DNA from: Somniosus microcephalus
Taxonomy: Eukaryota
DNA: 64,000 nt
Direction: 5' to 3'
Assembly (NCBI GenBank): GCA_052327205.1
Contig: CM126202.1
Location: forward strand, 422,592,001 to 422,656,000
Position 1 is the stretch's first letter. Each line of letters opens with the position of its first letter. The notes beneath the pieces were generated by a model. That model did no database searches. It was not told the DNA's origin and saw only the letters and a list, made by a program, of their open reading frames with translations. Position numbers and translations under genes: made by a program. Positions 20,341 through 47,789 of the stretch are shown in pieces.

Positions 20341-20434
20341 ATAGTTCCCCAGCTCTTAGTGTAAATAAAGAAAAAATGTAACACCAACCAATCACCTACC
20401 TGCTGTCCTGTGATGTCCCTCCTTTTTTTGTTTT

Positions 20435-20754
20435 GTGTGTCCTGGGCCTTCTCTGCTCCCGCTCTCTATCTTGCTGCCGCCGCTCCCGCTCAGGTCCAGT
20501 GTGACCTGGGCCTTCTCCGCTCCCGCTCTCTATCTTGCTGCCGCCGCTCCCGCTCAGATCCAGTGTGACCTGGGCCTTCTCCGCTCCCGCTCTCTATCTT
20601 GCTGCCGCCGCTCCCGCTCAGATCCAGTGTGTCCTGGGCCTTCTCCGCTCCCGCTCTCTATCTTGCTGCCGCCGCTCCCGCTCAAATCCAGTGTGTCCTG
20701 GGCTTTCGCCGCTCCCACTCTCTATCTTGCTGCCACCACTCCCGCTCAGATCCG
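20435..20754. repeat. GC-rich minisatellite, 5 x 64 bp
   Basis: Units start at 20435, 20499, 20563, 20627 and 20691 (GTGTGWCCTGGGCCTTCTCCGCTCCCGC...AGATCCA). Confidence 0.95.
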
Positions 20755-21111
20755 CTGTGATTCTACAGACAGCAGTTACCCTCTGGTACCTTGCTCAAGA
20801 GTCCATTATTCATGCGTTTGCATTGACAGTTAGGGCAGGATTTTAACTCCGGTGCGGGATGGTGTCGTGTTATCTGAATTTCATGTTTCCTACACGAATC
20901 TAAATGGATGTGGCAGATTGATGCAATTTTAACTTAAGTGGCCAATTGATTTCCAACGTGTGGGAAGCCTTCACAAATGGGTTTCTCATGACTGAAAGTC
21001 CCCTCCGATGACGTCATCATTGCTGCAGCATTTAAGGTCTACAGCAAGCCTTGCTTCTTCTGCAGGCTTCCAAGCTTTCTCCATTTGGTGTCAGAGGGAC
21101 CTGCAGGAAAG

Positions 21112-23341: not shown

Positions 23342-24580
23342 CTAAGCAAATCTGGCCAGGATGAGTGCGTTCCTTGCATCCTGGGCAGCAATGTTCTCAC
23401 GTAATGCTGCCACTAGTTGATGGGCCTCTGCAGGATGTTCATTTTCGCACTCCTCCTCCTCCTCATCTGAGGAGGGTATGTGAGGAGCCATTTGGTCCTC
23501 AGGAATCTGCAAGCCACGACGCTGTGCCATGATGTGAAGTGCACAGCAAACCACGATGATTCTGGAGACCCTGGCTGCTGAGTACTGCAGGGCTCCAGCT
23601 GATCTATCCAGGCATCTGAAGCTCATCTTCAGCAAACCGATGGTTTGCTCGATTATGGCTCTGGTGGACATGTGGCTGGAGTTGTAGCTCTCCTCAGCTT
23701 CGTTGGATGGTCTCCTCAACGGCGTTATTAGCCACGTCCTCAGGGGATAGCCCTTGTCTCCAAGTAGCCATCTGTTAAGTTGGTCTGGCGGACTGAATAG
23801 CGGAGGCACACTAGACTGGCGCAGTATGAAGGAGTCATGGCAACTGCCAGGGTACATGGCACAAACATGCAAAATTTCCATCTTGTGGTCACACACCAGC
23901 TGAACGTTAAGGGAGTGGAAGTCCTTGCGGTTGATAAAAATACTTGGATTGCGATGGGTTGCCTTAAGGGCCACATGTGTACAGTCAACGATGCCCTGCA
24001 CCCTAGGAAAGCCTGCCAGGTGAGCTAATCCAACTGCTCATGCCGTTACACTTGCTCGATCCTTGGTGAAATGGATGTGATTGTGCGCGAGGGCAAAGAG
24101 GGCATCGGTTACCTGCGTGATGCAAGTGTGTGCGGCCGCCTGGGAGATGCCGCTGATGTCTGCTGCTGATCCCTGGAATGAGCCTGAGGCAAAAAAGTTG
24201 AGTGTGGTGGTGACTTTGACGGCCACTGGTAATGCTTGCCCACCTGGCCCTCTGGGCAGCAGGTCTTGCTGTAGCATTGCGCAGATGTCACTCACTACCT
24301 CTCGTGAAAGTCGGAGCCGCCTTTGGCACTGCTGCTCAGACATGTTGAGATAGCTGACCCTGCGTCTGTAGACCCTGTTTGGGGGGTATCTCCTGCACCG
24401 ACGGGCTTCCAGGCGCTGGCCCCTTCTGGCCTGTGCAGCCTCAGGTAGGTGAGCATCAGCCTGCCGCTCCTGCTGCTGCTGCTGTTGCTGGTGCTGCTGT
24501 TATTCCTGGTTCTGCTGCTGCCGCGCCTGGTGCTCGAGCTCCTCTAATGCCCAGAAGGGAAGGAAATAAATGGCTCCCAT
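23342..24580 (-). pseudogene. Harbinger (HARBI1-like) DDE transposase, disrupted
   Basis: [35 protein letters not shown] and [12 protein letters not shown] motifs; stops and frameshifts in the N-terminal half. Confidence 0.92.
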
Positions 24581-25638: not shown

Positions 25639-28600
25639 ATGCCTAAATCTGACAATATTGATGCTTTTGATAGCGAAAGAGAGCCTAATTTTGGCAATAT
25701 TGATGCTTTTGATAACGAGATAGAGGATTGGACCACATATGTGGAAAGAGTGGAGGTATATTGCACCACAAATGGAATACAAGATGAAAAAAAAGCTTCA
25801 GTGCTTCTGGATCTAATGGGCGCAAAGACATACAAGCTGTTACGAAACTTAATCACTCCAGCCAAACCGATGGACAAGAATTTTGAGGAGATTGTTGATA
25901 CCATACACTGCCAATTCGAGGCAGGACTGGCAGATTCTCTGCGAGACAAATTCATCTGCGATCCCCTAAGTGTAGAAATACAAAAAAAGGTATCTTCTGA
26001 GAAAGATTTAACACTGGCCAAAGGCTTTCAGTGCAATAGGAGCTGCAAAGATACAGCAAAGGCCACAGGACTTCGGCACCCATGAAATGACACAGGGTTT
26101 CGAGAGATGTTATCGCTGCGGCAGATCCACCCATGACCAGAGGGACTGCTGGTTCAAGGAAAAAGCATGCAGGCGATGCGGAAAGATGGGACACATTCCA
26201 CGTGTGTGCCGATCTGAAAATAAAAAATCCACTAACAGGAAAAGAATCAATAAGGAAAAGCACAGAAAGGTACAAATGATGACGGACAGTAGCTCCGAAG
26301 ACCAGAAGAGCGATAGCGACTCCGGGAACAAGAGACTAAGCTCTCTCAAATTACATAATGTAATTGCCAAAGAAGATTACCAGACCATTTGGGTTACCCT
26401 CACAATAGCAGGGTCCCCAGTTAAAATGGAGCTAGATACAGGATCAGCTCTGACCGTCATAAATCGACGGGATTATGAGCGGCTATTTCCGCATATACCT
26501 TTAAAAGACACATCCATTATCTTGAAAACATATACGGGGCAGAAAGTATACCCCAAAGGAAAAATAAGGGTGCCCGTTGTATACAATGGCAAGGAAATAC
26601 AGAAGTTGTATTTATACATTCTACAAGATGGTGGTCATAGAGCCATAGAGTCATAGAGTTATACAGCACAGAAAGAGGCCCTTCGGCCCATCGTGTCTGC
26701 GCCGTCCATCAATCCCTGTCCAGTCTAATCCCATTTTCCAGCATTTGGTCCATAGCCTTGTATGCAATGGCATTTCAAGTGCTCATCCAAATGCTTCTTG
26801 AATGTTATGAGGGTTCCTGCCTCTACCACCCTTTCAGGCAGTGAGTTCCAGATTCCAACCACCCTCTGGGTGAAAAAGTTCCTCCTCAAATCCCCTCTAA
26901 ACCTCCTGCCCCTTACCTTGAATCTATGCCCCCTTGTCCACCGCTGTTGGGACGTGAATGGATCAGGAAAATACGTTTAGACTGGCACTCCATTCAGGCA
27001 CTGACGGTGACCAGTAAGGAAAAAAATGATGATGACGTCATACCTGGACGATTAAAAGACATCTTGGCCAACGCCAAGGAAGTGTTTCAAGAGAAACTAG
27101 GAACCTTGAAAGGCATCACCGCCTCAATAAAAGTGGAAGATGCAGCAATTCCCAAGTTTTTTAAGGCAAGACCGGTGCCATACGCAATTCGTCCAGCAGT
27201 CGAGGCAGAGCTGGAGAATTTGGAAAAGGCAGGCGTATTATCTAAAATAGATTGGAGCGAGTGGGCAACACCCATCGTCCCAGTCATGAAGAAAGCATTG
27301 AAGGGTGATGGATCTGAAGAACAGAGAAAAATTCGCATCTGTGGAGACTTCAAGGTGACTGTAAACCCGGTCCTTCACACGGTACAGTATCCTCTTCCGA
27401 GGATAGAAGATATTTTCGCCTCACTATCCGGAGGGAAACGTTCCACCAAAATTGACTTGGCACAGGCATACCTACAGATGGAGGTTGAAGAGGCCTCTAA
27501 AAAATATCTCACGATAAATACACACAAAGGTCTGTACCAGTACAATCGACTGGTTTTCGGAGTAGCATCCGCTCCAGCTATCTGGCAAAGAGCTATGGAG
27601 CAAGTCCTCCAAGGGATTCCGGGGACTCAATGCTACCTAGACGACATCCTTGTAACAGGAGAAAACGACAACGAGCACCTTGCCAATTTAGAGCAGGTGC
27701 TCACTAGGCTGAGAGAACGGGGCCTACGAGCAAATCGCCCCAAGTGCGAATTTTTCCGAAATCAAATATCATATTGTGGCCACATAATAAATAAGGAAGG
27801 GTTGCATAAGTCACCTGAAAAAATTGAAGCAGTCATAAAAGCCCCAGCACCTGAAAATGTTTCACAATTAAGGTCATTCCTGGGATTAATAAATTACTAT
27901 CATAAATTTTTACCGAACTTATCAACTCTTCTACACCCTCTTAATGAACTGCTACAAACAGGAGTAATTTGGAAATGGAACGAAGACTGCAAAAATGCCT
28001 TCCATAAATGCAAAGACTTAATCACATCCAAAGAAGTTTTGGCTCATTACAACCCATCACTGCCAATCAGACTGGCGTGCGATGCATCCCCTTACGGCAT
28101 ATTATCGCATAAATTCCCTGATGGCTCGGAACGGCCGATAGTTTTTGTGTCACGCTCATTGAACTCAGCTGAGCGTAACTATGCCCAAATCGACAGGGAA
28201 GCACTCAGCCTGGTATGGGGAGTAAAGAAATTCAACCATTACCTACACGGACAAAAATTTACCTTGTTGACTGACCATCAACCCCTCATCTCCATATTCA
28301 ACCCTAAAAAAGGTGTTCCCATTATGACAGCACAAAGGCTACAGAGGTGGTCCCTTTTTCTAGGGGTACGCCAATACAACATAGAATACAAAGGGTCAAA
28401 ACAGCATGGGAATGCTGACGGTTTATCGCGCCTACCGTTGCCAACGATAGAAGAGGCACCTACAGTAGACCCAGTAGAGATATTCCACTCTACCATAGTG
28501 GAATGTCTACCAGTGACAAATTCTGCCATTGAAAGGGAGACCAGAAATGACCCGACTCTCTCACGGGTCTACGATTTAACAGTGAAGGTATGGCCAGTAC

Positions 28601-29818
28601 ATGGCGAACCACTGTTGCCAGCATTGTCGCAAAGAAGAGAACAGCTGTCAGTGTGCTGAGGAACCTTGATGTGTGGATCCAGAGTGGTGATTCGACCCAA
28701 ACTCCAGGATAAAGTGCTAAAGGAGCTTCATGAAGGGCATCTGGGTGGAGTGAAAATGAAGAACCTAGCCAGGGCGTTTGTATGGTGGCCAGGTATCGAT
28801 GGAGACATCGAAGAAATGACCAAGAGCTGCCTAGGATGCCAGAAGGTCCAAAACGCTCCACCACAAGCCCCTCTACATCCATGGGAGTGGCCCTCATCTC
28901 CCTGGCAAAGGGTACACATCGACTTTGCTGGTCCATTTATGGACTCAATGTTCTTAATCGCGGTTGATGCACACTCCAAGTGGCCGGAGGTAATAAAGAT
29001 GTCCTCCACCACCACGGAAAAAACCATCACAGTATTAAGGACCATATTTGCCAGGAATGGGCTACCAGAACAGATCTGTTCTGATAATGGACCGCAATTT
29101 GTGTCCGAAGAATTCAGAAAGTTCTTAAAAAAACAATGGGGTTAAGCACTACACGTCCGCCCCATACCATCCCGCCACCAATGGATTGGCTGAAAGGTTT
29201 GTCCAGACCTTCAAGAAGGCCATAAAGGCCATGGGTAATAAAGACATAAAACTTCAGCACAAGGTGGATAACTTCTTATTCTCATACAGGAATGCAACAC
29301 ATATGGTTACCAACCAAACTCCCGCCATGATGTTCTTCAATAGAAACCTAAGATGCCGGCTGGATTTGGTCAAGCCCAACATCAGAAGGGACGTGGAGAA
29401 CCGGCAGTTTCAAGGCATGAATGAAAGGCCAACTAGAACCTTCCAGATAGGTCAACAAGTTTTGGCCCGGGACTACCGTACCGAGAAATGGCAGCCTGGA
29501 ACTATCTGCACATGACTAGGACCACTGATGTATACCGTGGACATCGGAGAAAGCATAATAAGGCGCTATGCTGACCAAATCATAAAGTCATCCGAAAAGG
29601 GACAACCTACACCACCACTCTATACATCTAACGATGAAGTAGAGATACCCATATCTACCTCCGATCCGGTGATACTGGAACCCGATGAACCCGACACTGG
29701 CATTCAAACCGAATCAGCCTTGCCAGAAGAACCTACTACACCACCAGAAACTACTACACCCCTGAGGCGTTATCCAGACCGAGTCAGGAAGCCTCCTGAG
29801 AGACTAACTTATAATTAA
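25639..29818 (+). pseudogene. Gypsy gag-pol (Gag, 2 zinc knuckles, PR, RT, RNase H, IN), disrupted
   Basis: LDTGS, YLDD, DAS, HHCC and DNGPQF motifs; gag deletions, a CR1 insertion, stops at 28659 and 29515, and a frameshift near 29135. Confidence 0.93.
26637..26935 (-). mobile_element. CR1 3' fragment inserted in the Gypsy protease region
   Basis: Splits DGG|PPLLGREW; (CATAGAGT)n tail on the plus strand; GTC repeated at both junctions. Confidence 0.9.
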
Positions 29819-30500: not shown

Positions 30501-30517
30501 GAAATGCAGGTGAGTGA

Positions 30518-33500
30518 TGAAATAAAGAATAGATTTGCCTTTCTAATCTAGGCTTTATTAACTTAAAAATCCTGTAGCACATCTTCAACACCCAGTCCCA
30601 ACTAAAGGCTGGAAAGAACTGAATTTAAGATGGCCACCACAAATCACATGACATCAACTACCAATGAGATTACAACATATATCCCAAGGCAGGAAACAAA
30701 CAACCAATCACAATACTTCTTACTAAACATAAAGAATAATCACCACATTCACCCCTCCTTTTAAAATATACTCCAACCTAAATAACCTTTACAATTTATA
30801 ATTAATTATTTACAACTAAAACTATGCACAGACAAAAAAAAACTATTCAACATGACACAATACTAAGTGAGCAACAACAAATAGTAACATTGCACATAAG
30901 TATTAAATATCTCTCAACTAAAACAATATAATATAATATTTCAACAATTTTAAAACATTACTATCAATTTAAAAGTCCATTTTCAATCGGTCGACCGGAT
31001 ATCTTCTCGTGTCGACCTTCTTAACCTTGGTGAAATTTCTTGCCCTCCCACACCAGGAGACACAGAAGTATCTTCTGCAGGAAGGCTATCCATATCCCGA
31101 TTTTCAACGGTTTCCGGATTAGAAATCCCATCAGGAGGTAAACTGGGACGGTCATGAACATCCATCGAGGGCTGACTAATAGAAGTATAATTATCTGCAG
31201 TCGGATTGGAAATATTCGTAGTATCTGTAACAGCATCCACATTATCTGAATCATGACTATTATTAATATCCTCAGAAGAGGGCTGGCCACCACAAGGAGC
31301 CAAGTCTTTAATTGAAACGGTACTTTCTTTCCCATCTTGGAATCGAATATGAGCATATTGGGAATTTGCCTCCAACAGCTCCACCTCCTCCACTAAAGGA
31401 TCATATTTTGACAATCTAACATGGCGTCGAAGCAGCACAGGTCCCTGCATAGTAAGCCATGAAGGTACCGAATATCCCGTAGTAGATCTCCGCGGATAGT
31501 TAAAGAGCCTTTCATGGGGGGTCACATTAGTAGCCGTTGAAAGCAATGATCTAATGGAATGCAGGGCATCAGGCAGTACCATTTCCCACTGTGTATTCTT
31601 AAGGTTCCGGGATGTCAAAGCCAACATAACTGCCTTCCAGATCACCCCATTGTATCATTCGCACTGTCCATTACCCTGGGGATTATACGGGGTAGTTCTG
31701 CTAGTAGAAATTCCCCGACTCTGAAGGTATTCCTTCAACTGGGAAGACATAAAAGAACTTCCCTGATCCGAATGGATATACGCAGGCATCCCAAAGATGA
31801 CAAAAAGTTGAGTCAGACATTTGATAACTGTAGCAGCTGATACATCTGCGCAAGGAAAAGCAAAAGGGAACCTTGAAAATTCATCCACAACAGTAAATAT
31901 ATATCGGTTTTGAGTAGTTGAAGGAAGAGGCCCCTTAAAATCGACGCTCAAACGTTCAAAAGGAGAAGTAGCCTTTATAAGATGAGCTCGTTGAGGCTTA
32001 AAGAAATTCGGTTTACACCGAGCACAGATAGAACATGATGAAGTCATCCGCTTGACGTCTTCAACTGAAAAGGGCAAATTCTTACTGCGTACGAAGTGTA
32101 TCATCCTCGTAACCCCAGGATGGCATAAGGCATTGTGAAAATTAATAAGTGTATCTCCGTGAATCACAGAACAATAAGCCCTCGACAGCGCATCAGCAGC
32201 AACATTATCCTTCCCCGGACGATAAACTATATCAAAATGGTAACATGCCAACTCAATCCTCCACCTCATTATTTTATCATTCTTAATCTTTCCAAAATGT
32301 TTGACATCAAACATAAAGGACACAGACTTTTGATCAGTTACCAGCATAAAATGTCGCCCCAATAAATAATGTCTCCATTTACGCAGTGCTTCTACTATTG
32401 CATATGCCTCTTTCTCTATTGAAGAATGCCTTTTTTCACTATTGTTCAAGGTACGTGAAAAAAAGGCCACAGGTCTTCCATTTTGGTTCAGAGTAGCCCC
32501 AATTGCAAAATCAGAAGCGTCCGTCTCAATCACAAAAGGAACCTGCTCATCAATAGAATGCACAACTGCTCCAAGGATATCCTTTTTAAAATTATCAAAA
32601 CACGTCCTGGCCTCCCATGATAGAGGATATGTCGTAACCCGAATAAGAGGCCAGATCTTCTGTGAAAAATTTGCAATCCAATTAGAATAGTAAGAAAACA
32701 GTCCAACAACTCGTTGCAAAGCCTTAGAATTAGTAGGACAGGGTAAATCAATCAATGGTCGCAGACGTTCTGGGTCTGGTTTAATCTTGTTTCCCGAGAT
32801 AATATACCCCAGTAGATTTACCTCAGCGGTCGAAAAGGTACACTTCTCTTTATTGAAAGTTAAACTAACTTTTTCCGTAGCTTGAAGGAATCTTTCTAAA
32901 TTAGAATCATGCTCCACCCTTGATTTGCCACACACCGTGATGTCATCTAAGTATGAAAAGGTGTCAGAGAGAGAGTTATCACTTATAAAAGCATCCATTG
33001 CCCGTTGAAAACAAGCAACACCATTAGTAACACCAAATGGTATTCGGCAAAACTGATACAGCTTTCCACCAGCCTCAAAGGCCGTATATGGTTGATCCTT
33101 CTTAACAATAGGAATCTGATGATAAGCACTCTTTAGGTCAATAGTGCTAAAAACCTTATACTGAGATACTTTATTGATAAGCTCATCAATTTTAGGCAAA
33201 GGGTACGCATCTAATTGAGTATACCTATTAATAGTTTGGGAATAGTCTATCACCATTCGTTTCTTATGTCTCTCGTTAGTCGTGACAACTACCTGTGCCC
33301 GCCAAGGCGAACAACTAGGTTCAATGATTCCTTCCAATAAGAGACGTTGAACTTCAGAATTAATAAATTCTCTATCCTGACTGCTATACCTTCTTGACTT
33401 GGTAGCAATTGGCTTACAATCCGGCATCAAATTGGAAAAAAGTGATAATGGAGAAATGGATAAAGAGGTTAATCCACAAATAGATAAAGGTGGCTTAGTC

Positions 33501-34923
33501 CCTCCAAATGAAAGATTGAGAGACTCGTGTAACTGAAGCACATCATGACCAATCAAAATATCCACACAGAGATTAGGCAAAACAGATAGGCGTATATCAG
33601 TATACGTATTACCTAGAAGAATCAATTTCACAAGGCAACAGCCAGCTACTTGTGAAGTGAGAGTCGTCTGAGCCATACACACCTGATAGGAAACAGGCGA
33701 AATTTTCAAATGCTTCTCCTTTGCAAACTGAAGACTTATAAAACTCTCGGTACTGCCCGTATCTATAAGGGCCTTCACTTCCAACCCATTAACTTGGGCC
33801 GTAACTATAGCTTTGTTTAGCTCATGAGCAAATGCAGCAGAAATTGATGCAATAAACGCCCTATCTATAGGCTGAATAGTCACAGAGGAGGTAATTGAAC
33901 CTGATGATTTACACACACGTGCGTAATGACCTCTCTTGCCGCATTTACTACACACAGCCTCCCAAGCAGGACACTTCAGACGAGGGTGCTGGACGTTCCC
34001 ACAAAAATAACACTTCTGAATCCTAGAGGCAACAGCCGCTGAAGTAGAAACTGTTTCAGAATCTAGTAAACCACTCCTATTAAGTCCACATAATTCCTTT
34101 TCATCCGGAACTGCCAAAACCACAGTCACAGGCCGATTAAAAAGAGCATAAGAATCCGAACTTCTCTGAGCCACATCCAATGTAGAAGCTTGCTCAAAAG
34201 CACTCTTAAGATCCAAAGTCTTATTTTCTAACAACCGCTGACGAATTGATCTAGACAGTAATCCATTAATAAAAGCATCCCGTACCGATTCTTCCTTATA
34301 TTCTTCAGCCATCACGGCCTTATAATTACAGTTAACACTAAGGCACCGAAGTGCTTGTAAATAAGTATCCAAAGATTCTCCCACCTGCTGCCTATGGGCA
34401 GATAGAAGGTGACGTGCAAATACCTCATTCTTTGGTTTAACAAAAATCTTTTCCAATGTAGAAATAGCCACTTCATAAGTTTTACAGTCCAAAATATACT
34501 TATCCACATCCGGAGCAATGTAGTTGATCAGCATATTCAGCTTATTTAGAGACTCTTGATCCAACACGCCCAAAAAGTTTTTAAATGTACAATACCAGTG
34601 TTTCCATTTATCATCCACTCCTGCAGAATTAGGGTCAGCATTGAATCGTTCTGGTTGAAGATATCGCTCCATTCTGACATAAAGTTAATAAATTGAAATA
34701 AAGAATAGATTTGCCTTTCTAATCTAGGCTTTATTAACTTAAAAATCCTGTAGCACATCTTCAACACCCAGTCCCAACTAAAGGCTGGAAAGAACTGAAT
34801 TTAAGATGGCCACCACAAATCACATGACATCAACTACCAATGAGATTACAACATATATCCCAAGGCAGGAAACAAACAACCAATCACAATACTTCTTACT
34901 AAACATAAAGAATAATCACCACA
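30518..34923 (-). mobile_element. Full-length young Gypsy/Ty3 LTR retrotransposon; LTRs 34694-34923 (5') and 30518-30747 (3')
   Basis: 230-bp LTRs identical by eye; 5-bp TSD AGTGA; PPT AAAAGGAGGGG; no tRNA-type PBS. Confidence 0.97.
30983..34672 (-). pseudogene. Single-frame gag-pol polyprotein with one nonsense codon (31655-31657) in integrase
   Basis: Two CCHC knuckles, LIDTGS, YLDD, TDAS, HHCC and DDE motifs. ORFs 31655-34672 and 30983-31645 are in frame (GQCE*YNG). Confidence 0.93.
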
Positions 34924-35165
34924 AGTGAATAGCAGGAAATTGGAGGGTATGATTTCCTTCCAGTCCCCGATAAAACTTGCCCCACAATTATTTCTGTATA
35001 GGCAGAATGCTTGAATAAATCTGAATGGAAGCCTAATTATTTATGCATCCAGTATGCTAATGAGGGCCTTTAGTAGGAGTTGACATTTCTGCCATTGAGG
35101 CAATTGTTTCAAAGCCTAATTAAAAGGGATAACAGGGACAAAGTTTGTCATTTTTTTAAGACTTT

Positions 35166-43213: not shown

Positions 43214-46200
43214 TGACGTAATAAAACTCACTACGCACTTGGTTTGAGCATAAAGCAAGGCTTTAATCAACTTGTTTCAGAACATGGAGGTCTAGTTGTA
43301 CTTCACTAGTTCCTTGTCTTACAAAATGTCCCTGGCAAGCTGGGCCCACACCCGAGTATTTATACTCCTTGGACGGCGCCACCAGCTGGCCGTCCAGCAT
43401 TATTTCATGAGTAGTTTCTTGATGAATGATGAGATTTATAACATTTTTCCTGTCTAAAAGATTTGGAAGTCTGACAACTTCCTCTTAGCGGATTAGGCGG
43501 ACCACGAATAGCCGCAGTCTTTTAGATTTTTGTTTATGGCTAGAAGGCATGTCTCCCCGGATCGTGTCTTGGTCCCTGGGCTGCTTGATCCATACCGGTG
43601 GATTGACAGGGCCTGTGATGCTCTGATCGACCTGAGGGAGGCTGGGGAATTCGTGACTCGGGGTGCGGGTCCCCACAGGCGCAGAACTGGTTTCATCCTG
43701 TTGGATAGCCGGGGATTGACCGGCGTCCTGGCCTCGGGTGGCCATCCCACGTGGAGCGCTCGGCTCCCAGAGTGGATCTGGTGGGGCAGCTGGCAGATCT
43801 CTCGATGTCCCAGGTAGGGCGTCATCTTTGGGGGAGCGCAGAGTGTCGGCATCATCCCCGAGGGTCCCTCTATCAGTTGGGTCCGTGGAACCGGCCGGAC
43901 AGGGAGCCAGGTCCTGGAGCGAAACGGTGGACTCCCGGCCATCAGGGTACCGCACGTGCGCGTACGTGGGGTTAACGTCCGTGAGTTCTCCCTCGTCAAC
44001 GAGGCGATCATTTTTAGAAGACCGGACGAATCTTTGAAGCAGCACGGGGCTGGGAGCTGCCAACCATGACGGTAGGGACATCCCATGGGTGGAGCGACGC
44101 TGGAAGCTGAAGAATTGCTCATGAGGTGTGACATTGGTAGACGTAGAAAGGAGAGACCTGATGGAATGCAACACGTCAGGGAGCATAGTTTCCCACTGCT
44201 GGTCTGGTAGGTTGCGTGACCTCAGCGCAAGACGAAGAGCGTTCCAAATGATAGCGTTGTATCTCTCAACCTGTCCGTTACCGATGGGATGGTACGGTGT
44301 CGTTTTACTTGTGGCGATTCCCCGTTGGGAGAGATAACTTTTGAGTTCGCTTGACATGAAGGAGGGACCCCGATCAGAGTGGATGAAATTGGCCGTACCA
44401 CAAAGGGAAAAGACTTGATCAAGGCATTTGATCACTGTGGAAGTAAGCATATTGGGACAGGGGAAAGCAAAGGGAAAGCGTGAATATTCGTCCACCATAG
44501 TCAGTAAGTAGGTGTTTCGCGTTGAGGAAGGCAATGACCCTTTAAAGTCAATGCTGAGTCGCTGCATAGGTTGCATAGCGTGTATGAGCGAGCCATCCGA
44601 TGGACGGAAGAATTGCGGTTTTAATTCCACTCAAATTCTACAGGAGCACGCTCTTTTCACAGCTTCCATAGAAAATGGGATATTTTTAGATCGCACAAAG
44701 TGCAACATACGGGTAATGCCAGGATGTCATAAGTCAGTATGAAGATCCGCCAGAGTCGAAGTTGACATAGAAGAGCAGAATGCCCGCGTGAGGGTATCCG
44801 GGACCACATTCTCTTTGCCGGGTCGATAATGTATGGTGTATCCAAAGGCGGCCAATTCCATCCTCCAGAGTTGTATTTTGTTATTCTTGATCTTAGTGCG
44901 TTTCCGGTTATCCAGCATAAAGGCCACGGAGCGCTGATCGGTTATAAGTGTGAAATGGCGACGAGCGAGAAAATGACTCCATTTACGTACCACTTCGATG
45001 ATGGCCGTAGCCTCCTTCTCGACAAGAGGATAATGGAGCTTGCTACCCTGCAAAGTTCTGGACAGAAATGCAACGGGTCGACCACTTTGATTCAAGGTAG
45101 CAGAGATCGCCACATCCGATGCATCGCACTCGACCACGAAAGGAAGATTTTCATCAATTGAACGAAGCGTGGCTTTTTCCAGTTGTCGCTTGAGGAGGTT
45201 GAAAGCTGAAATAGCCGTTGCCTCCAATGGAAATGACTTTGCGTGAAGCAGGGGCTGGATCTTGTCAGAGAAGTGGGGTATCCACTTCGCATAATAGGTG
45301 AACATGCCGAGTGCCCGATGAGGAGAGCTGAGATTCGTAGGGGAGGGAGCTCCTGAAGCAGACGAAGTCGCTCCGGATTCGGTTTGATGACACCGTTGCC
45401 CACCCAATAGCCAAGGATGTTGACTGATGGTACTGATTTCACAGATTTGGACTCATTTAAGGTTAAGTTGCGACAATGGAGAACATCAAAAAATTTCTGG
45501 AGGTTGGCATCATGTTCCTTCTGGTCATGACCAGCAATGGTGATATTATCCAGATATGGAAAAGTGTCTGTTAAGTTCTCCTGTTTGAGTAGGCTATCCA
45601 TTGCCCATTGAAAGACAGCCACCCCATTGGTGACCCCAAATGGAAGGTGACAAAACTGGTAAAGCCGACCATTGGCCTCAAAGGCCGTATACTATTTGTC
45701 AGAGTCCTTTAAAGGTACTTGGTGATATGCGCTCTTTAAATCAAAGGTTGAAAATACCTTGTAGTTAGCAAGGTTATTGACCATGTCATCGATGCGTGGT
45801 AGTGGGTAGGCATCCAGGCCGGTATACTGGTTAATAGTTTGCGAGTAATCGATGCAAAGACATTGCTTGTGTTGCTTCAGAGGATTTTTGACAATAACGA
45901 CTTGAGCCTGCCAGGAAGATGAACATAGCTCAATGATACCGTCAGCTAGAAGGCGAGAGATTTCTGTCTCGATAAAGAATCGATCATCTTGGCGGAAACG
46001 TCGTGATTTAGTGACTATGGGCTTACATCGGGGGGAAAGATTGGCAAACAAGGAGGGCTCGTCGAGCGAAGCCACCGAAAGCGCACAAAACGGTACTTTG
46101 GAAATAGTAAGCTCTGGCTTTGATCCTCCAAACTCGAAAGTGAGTCTTTTGTGTTGTTTCTGGAAATCCTGTCCCAGGAGCACATCACTGCATAGGTTTT

Positions 46201-47789
46201 TGAGCACCCCAAGCCAAGTGGAGAAATAAGTGCGGCCATTGAGAATAAGGTCGACAAAACAAAAGCCGGAAGAATTGGTGGTCAGTGTTGTCAGAGCCAT
46301 TGCAATTTCCCTGTCCGAGAGGTAAATACGCAGTTTTAACTCACTAATGAAGCTGTCAGAGCTGCATGAGTCGATTAGTGCACTCAAAATGTGTCCATTT
46401 ACCAAAACCTTTGTGGCTGCATGGGACAGACTTTGGGGAAAAACAGCTGTGCTTGGAGGAGGGGCAGTTTTACCCTTGACAGCTGTAACCTTAGTAGTGG
46501 TTCTTGGGGGAGGAGCAGTTTTATAGATTGCAGCTGTAACCTTAGTAGTGGCTCTTGGGGGAGGAGCAGTTTTATAGATAGTAGCTGCAAAACTAACAGG
46601 AGCTCTCGACCGGTATACCTTAGAAAAGTGGCCTTTCTTACTAACAGCGGCTCTTGACCTGCATACCTTGGAAAAGTGACCTAATTTGCTGCAACGATTG
46701 CAGGTCGCGTTACGAGCAGGACAAAATTTCCTATAATGGAACGGACCTCCACAGAAGAAACACTTCCTTCCAGATTGCCAAGATGCCGCTAGGGCGGAGT
46801 CATCATCAGTGTATGTTTCTAGGGTAAGGTTGTCATCAGCCGGGTTGGAGTCGTCATCCATGAGGACATCCGCCCGGGGCCTATCGAAAGAGTCACTAAA
46901 AGTGATAGCAGCAGCCCATGCACGTGGTGAAAGATAGGTATCTGCATTCCTCTTTGCTAAGTCCAGAGAACATGCCTGGTCATAGGCAGCCTGTAACTTG
47001 AGGGTTTTATTCTCCAACAGACGCTGACATATGAAGGGAGATGCAATCCCATTAATAAAGGAATCACAAATTAAATCCTCCTGGTACTGCTCAGCTGTAA
47101 CAGCTTTAAGATTACAATCCTTGCTGAGCCTGCGAAGTTTCTGAAGGAATTCGTCAAGTGATTCCCCGGGTTGTTGTCGAGTTGTGGCCAGTAGATGCCG
47201 AGCAAAAATTTCATTTGGGGACTTGACATATAGCTGCTGTAGTATTTGGATAGCGGCGTCATAGTCTACACAGTCTTCGATATAATCAAACACATGAGAG
47301 GATACATAAATAGCAAGCATTCGTAACTTGTTAGGAACATTCTCACCACACTCCTCAAGGAAGTTGCCAAAGGTACGATACCAGTGTTTCCATACCTTAG
47401 CGGCTGTAAGTGAATTTGGGTCCAGGTCGAGACGGGCGGGTCTGAGTAGTTTCTCCATGATGGATCGATTACTTGTCTGAGTTCCCTTCTACGGTTCGAG
47501 TCGTAGCTGGCTGTTCCTGAATCACCCAAAGCGTGGAGTCAATATCAAGTTGATTAAATTGACGTAATAAAATTCACTACGCACTTGGTTTGAGTATAAA
47601 GCAAGGCTTTAATCAACTTGTTTCAGAAGATGGAGGTCTAGTTGTACTTTGCTAGTTCCTTGTCTTACAAAATGTCCCTGGAAAGCTGGGCCCATGCCCG
47701 AGTATTTATACTCCTTGGACGGCGCCACCAGCTGGCCATCCAGTGTTATTTCATGAGTAGTTTCTTGATGAATGATGAGATTTATAACA
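43214..47789 (-). mobile_element. Full-length Gypsy/Ty3 LTR retrotransposon; LTRs 47560-47789 (5') and 43214-43443 (3')
   Basis: 230-bp LTRs with about 11 differences; 5-bp TSD GTCGC; no tRNA-type PBS. Gag resembles that of 30518-34923 (MEKLLRPARLDLDPNS vs MERYLQPERFNADPNS). Confidence 0.97.
43485..47458 (-). pseudogene. Gypsy gag-pol, disrupted
   Basis: CCHC knuckles, LIDSCS, YLDN (mutated YLDD), CDAS and integrase core; several stops and frameshifts. Confidence 0.92.

Follow-up and report, generated by a model that had tools for sequence, protein, structure and literature searches.

How does an LTR retrotransposon begin reverse transcription when its primer-binding site (PBS) has no TGG for a tRNA end and is instead complementary to a segment of its own LTR? 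The question is raised by a 4.4-kb element in the 64-kb stretch of DNA analysed here, hereafter called the window. Self-priming is regarded as characteristic of the Tf1/sushi chromoviruses, with a plant Copia lineage predicted to use it too, and to our knowledge self-primed reverse transcription has been proven by experiment only for fission-yeast Tf1. The original prediction, made from the window sequence, placed the element outside that group and proposed a tRNA-independent primer that ends directly past a poly(A) hexamer.

The element, its family and the rest of the window

The order protease-RT-RNase H-integrase, LTRs bounded by TG...CA, a polypurine tract and a target duplication identify the element at 30518-34923 as Ty3/Gypsy (Table 1), and its RNase H domain scores 107 bits in Pfam. 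A Pfam scan of both parts of the polyprotein returned no chromodomain, as had been anticipated, and PF00385 is absent from all 120 + 120 listed homologues obtained in the Gag-region and RT-region protein searches. The family is young and large in the 6.4-Gb genome, where 150/150 scored Gag-start matches are 99-100% identical. The stop inside the integrase leaves a frame of 1009 codons; the same frame length was found in 5/150 listed own-genome copies, which suggests that the break is shared or recurrent, and a frame of 1238 codons in 13/150. An out-of-frame ATG at 34678-34680 (minus strand), 8 nt ahead of the gag ATG, starts a frame of 44 codons that overlaps the beginning of gag, and could damp translation. 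Head-to-tail runs with a spacing of about one element (G000:C2:281168581-281190917 and G000:C3:5186516-5200699) are formed by copies of this family and of a sushi-type family in the same genome.

The window holds another LTR element of the clade (43214-47789), older than the first; both elements have target duplications of 5 bp. Upstream in the LTR of this second family is a word that we take to be CTCF-like; a search for poly(A)-tailed retrocopies of the family gave 0 matches. The window further contains the Pol of another Gypsy family (26845-29145, plus strand), 83% identical to L283, an element with a tRNA-type PBS; a Harbinger-type DDE transposase fragment (DDE_Tnp_4; 23342-24037, minus strand); a 21.6-23.1 kb stretch, related to the region of that fragment, which recurs at 51.5-53.0 kb; a tandem array with a 64-nt period (20371-20760); and many non-LTR RT-encoding repeat fragments in both orientations (3.6-6.3, 13.7-17.8, 41.9-42.7, 55-56 and 62-63.8 kb).

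Table 1 Coordinates of the two elements of the clade and of their parts within the window.
Feature	Position	Strand	Remarks
Ty3/Gypsy LTR element	30518-34923	minus	4.4 kb; two 230-nt LTRs, 100% alike
5' LTR	34694..34923	minus	230 nt, TG...CA; same sequence as 3' LTR
3' LTR	30518..30747	minus	second copy of primer segment at 30554-30564
Target-site duplication TCACT, 5 bp	34924..34928, partner 30513-30517	minus	flanks the 30518-34923 element
Polypurine tract	30752..30762	minus	
gag-pol frame	31655..34672	minus	two CCHC knuckles in Gag, protease, RT, RNase H, integrase core
In-frame stop closing the gag-pol frame	31655-31657	minus	inside integrase
Rest of integrase	30983..31654	minus	same frame past stop; without chromodomain
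PBS TTTATTAACTT	34682..34692	minus	no TGG
One-base spacer (A)	34693..34693	minus	between the LTR's CA and the PBS
Predicted self-primer AAGTTAATAAA	34730..34740	minus	exact complement of PBS; final six letters AATAAA
RCC...GGY hairpin (GCCT/AGGC)	34713..34729	minus	begins at first base past primer
Predicted cut site	between 34730 and 34729	minus	junction of AAA and RCC (AAA/RCC)
Second LTR element of the clade	43214-47789	minus	LTRs ~93% alike, duplication GCGAC, frames broken; older
PBS of second family	47546-47558	minus	13-bp duplex; arrangement spans 47546..47620
Partner of second-family PBS	47608-47620	minus	13 bp, ending ATTAAA
TATA box of second family TATAAATA	47703-47710	minus	inside short palindrome

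PBS-LTR pairing at the 5' junction

On the element strand the 5' LTR terminates in TTTCA and is followed by a single A and then by the PBS, TTTATTAACTT, which is the exact 11-nt reverse complement of an LTR segment, AAGTTAATAAA, that stops 36 nt short of the LTR end; the gag ATG (34670-34672) lies 21 nt past the LTR. Re-reading of the sequence reproduced this layout as it had been described, from the TTTCA to the gag start. The 11-mer AAGTTAATAAA has 3 occurrences in the window, two of which are the LTR pair itself and the third the PBS in reverse, and 3 occurrences were reached in 0/100 shuffles. When the LTR was shuffled by dinucleotides, a match of at least 11 within the first 6 offsets after the LTR arose in 7/5000 shuffles. 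The 11 bp are intact in 22 of the 30 copies of the family that were examined, and the other copies carry uncompensated changes. For the hairpin drawn directly past the predicted primer, the energy-minimum fold of this copy favours a different small stem. No tRNA gene was found in the window, and Rfam gave no match at the PBS.

Conservation of the pairing in animal relatives

A protein search with the Gag region returned 242 proteins, whose named sources include corals, crustaceans, a spider and a fluke, and one with the RT region added relatives from a nematode, insects, a sea slug and a ray. Three sources supplied the DNA of relatives: 80 metagenome loci, the element's own genome, and 32 loci in bacterial assemblies that evidently include animal contigs, of which 10 entered the junction test. 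L171-L201 are animal retrotransposon contigs inside bacterial genome bins, a sign of host contamination. Relatives of the clade were not found in scans of IMG/VR.

Among the 94 loci examined, 59 contain the Gag start, and 57 of these have enough upstream DNA and were hence scored. With the register CA + 1 nt + PBS, a PBS-LTR duplex of 10 bp or longer is found in 42/57 scored loci, compared with 2/1140 shuffles. Such pairing occurs in at least one member of 26 of the 33 Gag clusters; of the other 7, 4 pair over 14-16 bp with one mismatch and 3 look truncated, interrupted or decayed. It is visible in L174, the earliest-branching member, and in L072, the row nearest the 30518-34923 element in the tree. 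Variants were also seen (L092:1-140, L089, L124, L101 and L172) in which the primer end is not AAA/RCC or the loop is longer, with 12-15 bp still paired. The pairing is real, lies far beyond chance and is a property of a whole clade of animal Gypsy elements.

Covariation and geometry of the duplex

Geometry was compared in a set of 29 families with distinct LTRs, made up of 25 cluster representatives (one cluster, of the same LTR family, was dropped) and 4 extra members. The duplex is 11-19 bp long with a median of 14, the loop between partner and PBS spans 20-67 nt, and 23 different 11-mers occur. Changes on both sides are found in 17 of the 18 aligned pairs, with a covariation score of 0.597 against 0.169 in shuffles (0/500 as high) and 0.09-0.14 in slid controls; shuffle counts in this set, here and below, are not probabilities, the families having been picked for pairing of at least 10 bp and being related by descent. 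Pairing exceeds the shuffled expectation as far as -16 and drops to chance at -17 and beyond.

These counts bear on the reading in which the 3' end of a tRNA, or half a tRNA, is the primer and the match to the LTR is incidental. Not one PBS in the set begins with TGG (0/29), and tRNA-type sites were readily detected in the control elements L181 and L283. Each PBS tracks its own LTR and not a constant RNA: when partners were swapped between families, pairing fell to a mean of 4.2 bp and 18/812 combinations reached 11, a control that largely refutes tRNA priming, which we therefore regard as highly improbable. The exact 11-bp match and the clade-wide pairing thus sustain the claim of a tRNA-independent, self-complementary site without TGG, and the conservation and covariation in relatives that the original prediction had proposed as its check are both present.

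The LTR-side end of the duplex is equally regular. It is AAA in 27/29 families, the next letters are GCC or ACC in 26/29, and a stem of at least 4 bp starts at the first base past the primer in 19/29, as against 6.6 in shuffles (0/1000 as high). The final hexamer of the partner is ATTAAA in 11 families and AATAAA in 8, and in the remaining 10 it is GTTAAA, TGAAGA, ACAAAT or another word; all 10 are still paired. A fixed primer end right past the hexamer position, as first proposed, is accordingly seen in most families, where AAA is followed by RCC. The proposed tie of the partner to the poly(A) signal stands for the 19/29 families that end in AATAAA or ATTAAA and does not extend to the 10/29 with other hexamers. 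Because these remain paired, the signal itself appears less conserved than the paired AAA/RCC junction, situated where a poly(A) signal usually sits, and it is this junction that the comparison points to as the conserved feature.

Could the duplex be a regulatory hairpin only, one that blocks 5' polyadenylation or gates gag translation while some host RNA primes? The canonical hexamers and the position of the gag ATG, which is at most 9 nt from the duplex end in 13/29 families, speak for such a role. A regulatory hairpin, however, has no need to start exactly one base past the LTR's CA, nor to keep a fixed end at the junction; the host primer would have to track the 23 different 11-mers; and families whose hexamer is no poly(A) signal, for example L077, L101 and L177, keep the pairing. 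We consider this explanation improbable.

Compensation is also visible between close relatives. L076 is 98.3% identical to L111 and differs by one change present in both LTRs together with the matching compensating change in the PBS; L047 carries a compensated change in the pairing as well. The change between L076 and L111 fits a primer that is copied back into the PBS at replication, and selection could explain it too. In single copies compensation is rare, with 1/109 copies of the second family and 0/30 in the 30518-34923 family.

Position of the transcription start

An A occupies position -11 in 24/29 families and a G position -10 in 25/29, and the initiator-like word Y-H-A-G-Y is found at -11 in 17/29 families against a background of 1.5%. 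Y-H-A-G-Y words act as initiators. We tentatively place the transcript start at the conserved A or a few bases ahead of it, 11 bases from the cut, in which case the primer would be the capped 5' end of the RNA, as in Tf1.

A start far upstream, a sub-case of self-priming, is a possible arrangement, the start at the primer being a little likelier. The transcript would then begin tens of bases upstream, a capped leader would supply the primer with its 3' end, and the duplex would also hide the 5' poly(A) signal. This is the version of the original prediction, in which the partner segment seemed internal to R. This reading draws on the lack of a TATA box 30 nt ahead of the primer in the 29 families (0/29, compared with 13/13 sushi controls) and on the second family, whose three subfamilies all keep TATAAATA 99-103 nt upstream of the cut and differ by compensated changes that include positions -12 to -14 (109/120 copies scored). 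Duplexes longer than 11 bp (26/29 families), a hexamer 20-67 nt from the LTR end, the place expected for a poly(A) signal, and an upstream LTR stretch of the 30518-34923 element that can pair with early gag (z -1.9) point the same way. On the other side are the initiator-like AG at -11/-10 in most families and the 10/29 noncanonical hexamers; pairing of the upstream leader is not clade-wide (mean z 0.11; 2/29 families), and if the leader were long, plus-strand copying would have to be halted by some signal. Dispersed starts from a TATA-less initiator would fit most of the data, though not the TATA box of the second family, and both arrangements of the start may exist within the clade.

The family of the 30518-34923 element is transcribed, with 1710 and 4840 reads from both strands on a 1.5-kb stretch in two RNA runs that carry a matching species label. 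The reads are mostly 90-99% alike, many run from the LTR into varied flanks, and no splice joint, poly(A) tail, clear start or cut was seen in the two runs. One strand makes up ~0.1 of the run X8 reads upstream of 34760 and 0.2-0.3 of those further downstream, with 8 molecules that end at 34770, and run X7 differs; the same stretch holds subfamily divergence and the strandedness of the library is not known, and the shift was not used as evidence.

Truncated copies and splice sites were also surveyed. Truncations of the 5' end at most 120 nt from the junction occur in 6/144 scored copies (149 given) and are scattered, one of them at the primer start. L034 (1/144) begins exactly 12 nt ahead of the cut, and its 3' end is interrupted by another element, so it proves nothing. 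Splice-acceptor-like sites upstream of the primer number 8/31 against 6.5 in shuffles, a difference that is not significant. Six invertebrate-type families (L094, L112, L119, L134, L072 and L174) carry a pyrimidine tract with CAG, like a splice acceptor, 18-35 nt upstream of the cut.

Comparison with sushi-type elements and tree placement

A DUF4939 search of the same genome supplied sushi-type controls, of which 16 were fetched and 13 were usable; two of the three left out had no LTR pair, and in the third the LTR pair belonged to a tRNA-primed element. One control, L273, carries Chromo and SH3_Tf2-1 domains. All 13 controls have an exact 11-bp duplex, a one-base spacer, a TATA-like box 30-31 nt ahead of the primer and a loop of 137-161 nt, and several show a hairpin, read by eye, directly past the 11-nt primer. 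The genome holds young sushi-type chromoviruses with textbook self-priming geometry (L273-L287). Since the register CA + 1 base + PBS is the same in 13/13 of these controls, the register of the clade, which has the one-base spacer in common with them, matches that of a primer.

The two groups differ in several respects. The clade has neither a chromodomain nor a Tf2-type SH3 domain and forms a separate RT clade; its loops are far shorter than those of the controls and its duplexes vary in length where theirs are of exactly 11 bp. It has no TATA box at -30 and no general Tf1-type pretzel (pairing of the loop with the sequence past the PBS reaches a z below -1.65 in 4/29 families), and the local hairpin past the primer is found in 19/29 instead. 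Its primer overlaps the position of the poly(A) signal, whereas the primer of Tf1/sushi lies ~70 nt upstream of the signal.

In two quick RT-RNase H trees, built without named reference elements and without fungal Tf1, a long branch (SH-aLRT 100) divides the clade from the sushi-type and the tRNA-primed elements. Holding the clade together with sushi costs 2.08 log-likelihood units, with a p-AU of 0.28; a sister relation is not rejected, and therefore one and two origins of self-priming are indistinguishable from the tree. The long-branch split from the own-genome sushi-type elements in these quick trees agrees with the earlier placement of the element outside Tf1/sushi, and by chromodomain, by tree (quick, and without fungal Tf1) and by geometry the clade falls, on present sequences, outside that group. 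The translation of the 30518-34923 element has two CCHC arrays in Gag, a trait of the Mag lineage in the accessible text of PMC2577118 that is not diagnostic by itself.

Discussion

A self-primer predicts all four features seen here: the register of the site, its fixed end, a hairpin at the junction and covariation. A tRNA site or a merely regulatory hairpin does not, and for this reason self-priming is favoured. We think it quite probable that the clade primes reverse transcription in the manner of Tf1, from a segment of its own LTR that is cut at the AAA/RCC junction. The steps that go beyond the pairing, its fixed geometry and its clade-wide covariation, all of which are read from the sequences, are modelled on Tf1. 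In the accessible text of PMC5341516, PMC4600332 and bioRxiv 10.1101/2022.12.06.519325, the RT of Tf1/Tf2 cuts the self-primer from the mRNA.

The RNA would fold and bring the AAA-ending segment into a duplex with the PBS, with the small hairpin stacked at the junction marking the cut site, and the element's own RNase H would cut at the fixed AAA/RCC junction. The freed 3'-OH would be extended across the spacer base, U5 and the rest of R (~37 nt in the 30518-34923 element), and the resulting very short strong-stop DNA would jump to the 3' R by way of only the stretch from the cut to the poly(A) site. A later copying of the primer back into the PBS by plus-strand synthesis would account for the compensated changes seen between copies that are nearly identical. 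Where the hexamer is canonical, in two thirds of the families, the same segment would act as the poly(A) signal in the 3' LTR.

The primer might alternatively come from the 3' copy of R, in the element's own RNA or in a co-packaged one, cut or trimmed at the same junction. The segment is present in both LTRs, and the 5' R would stay whole for strand transfer; the 5' copy, however, is separated from the PBS by 36 nt and would be the first to pair during RNA synthesis, and the loop is kept short across the clade, at 20-67 nt. We accordingly give this route little credence.

Tf1, Tf2, Tj1 and the Tf1/sushi group share with the clade a PBS complementary to the own 5' LTR and an 11-bp core, as far as the accessible text of bioRxiv 10.1101/2022.12.06.519325, PMC4600332, PMC5341516 and PMC6317226 describes them; in the same accessible accounts a helix begins directly past the primer in the Tf1/sushi group, as it does in the clade, and an RT-mediated cut is presumed for both. 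PMC6317226, in the part available, lists Tcn1 (plant chromoviruses) and TAR/Houba/Osr-1 (plant Ty1/copia) as predicted self-primers, its criterion being PBS-LTR complementarity of at least 10 bp starting 0-5 nt past the LTR. The 30518-34923 element shows complementarity of this kind, its lineage and host differing from those of Tcn1 and TAR, and the TAR case in that account indicates that self-priming arose outside the chromoviruses before, in Copia. We are fairly confident that the clade works like Tf1/sushi self-priming while standing outside that group.

Which named clade this may be was also considered. Cigr-1, from a tunicate, presumably has LTRs of ~245 nt and one ORF of ~3.6 kb, which resembles the 230-nt/3.7-kb layout of the 30518-34923 element. 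By this size and layout the clade may be Gypsy-Cigr, and the MolGy clades are equally possible names. The names Cigr-1 clade and Gypsy-Cigr (a RepeatMasker class) appear in PMC6238403 and the supplement of PMC8556966, whose accessible text gives no primer mechanism, and a motif search of papers and readable supplements, these two included, produced no match that would name the clade. Saci2 and lennie of flatworms are, like the clade, metazoan non-chromoviral Gypsy elements with a fused Gag-Pol, but in the accessible text of PMC12471100 and PMC4558846 they have a tRNA-type PBS (tRNA-Leu for lennie) and 4-bp target duplications; the lack of a tRNA PBS and the 5-bp duplications here rule out Saci2 as the name. 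Neither self-priming in a non-chromoviral animal Gypsy clade nor a primer over the poly(A) signal was found in the accessible full-text literature, which included PMC6934838, PMC3601003, PMC6238403 and PMC8556966; a prior description elsewhere is possible.

Taken to its furthest, the proposal would be of a pan-animal clade in which a primer internal to the RNA covers the poly(A) signal, a co-transcriptional duplex silences the 5' site, a cut at AAA/RCC turns the capped leader into a primer, the strong-stop DNA measures 20-70 nt and self-priming arose separately from Tf1/sushi; that all of this holds together is doubtful.

Tf1-like self-priming would have several consequences. A self-complementary PBS explains why PBS finders report nothing for the clade, and its elements would escape silencing by tRNA 3' fragments. 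The clade provides a very small substrate for studying how RNase H recognizes a self-primer, and it lets one ask how a single stretch of RNA can prime at one terminus of the element's genome and signal polyadenylation at the opposite one. Priming without tRNA is thereby widened in animals, where a large non-chromoviral Gypsy clade appears to be self-primed within an RNA fold of 60-100 nt.
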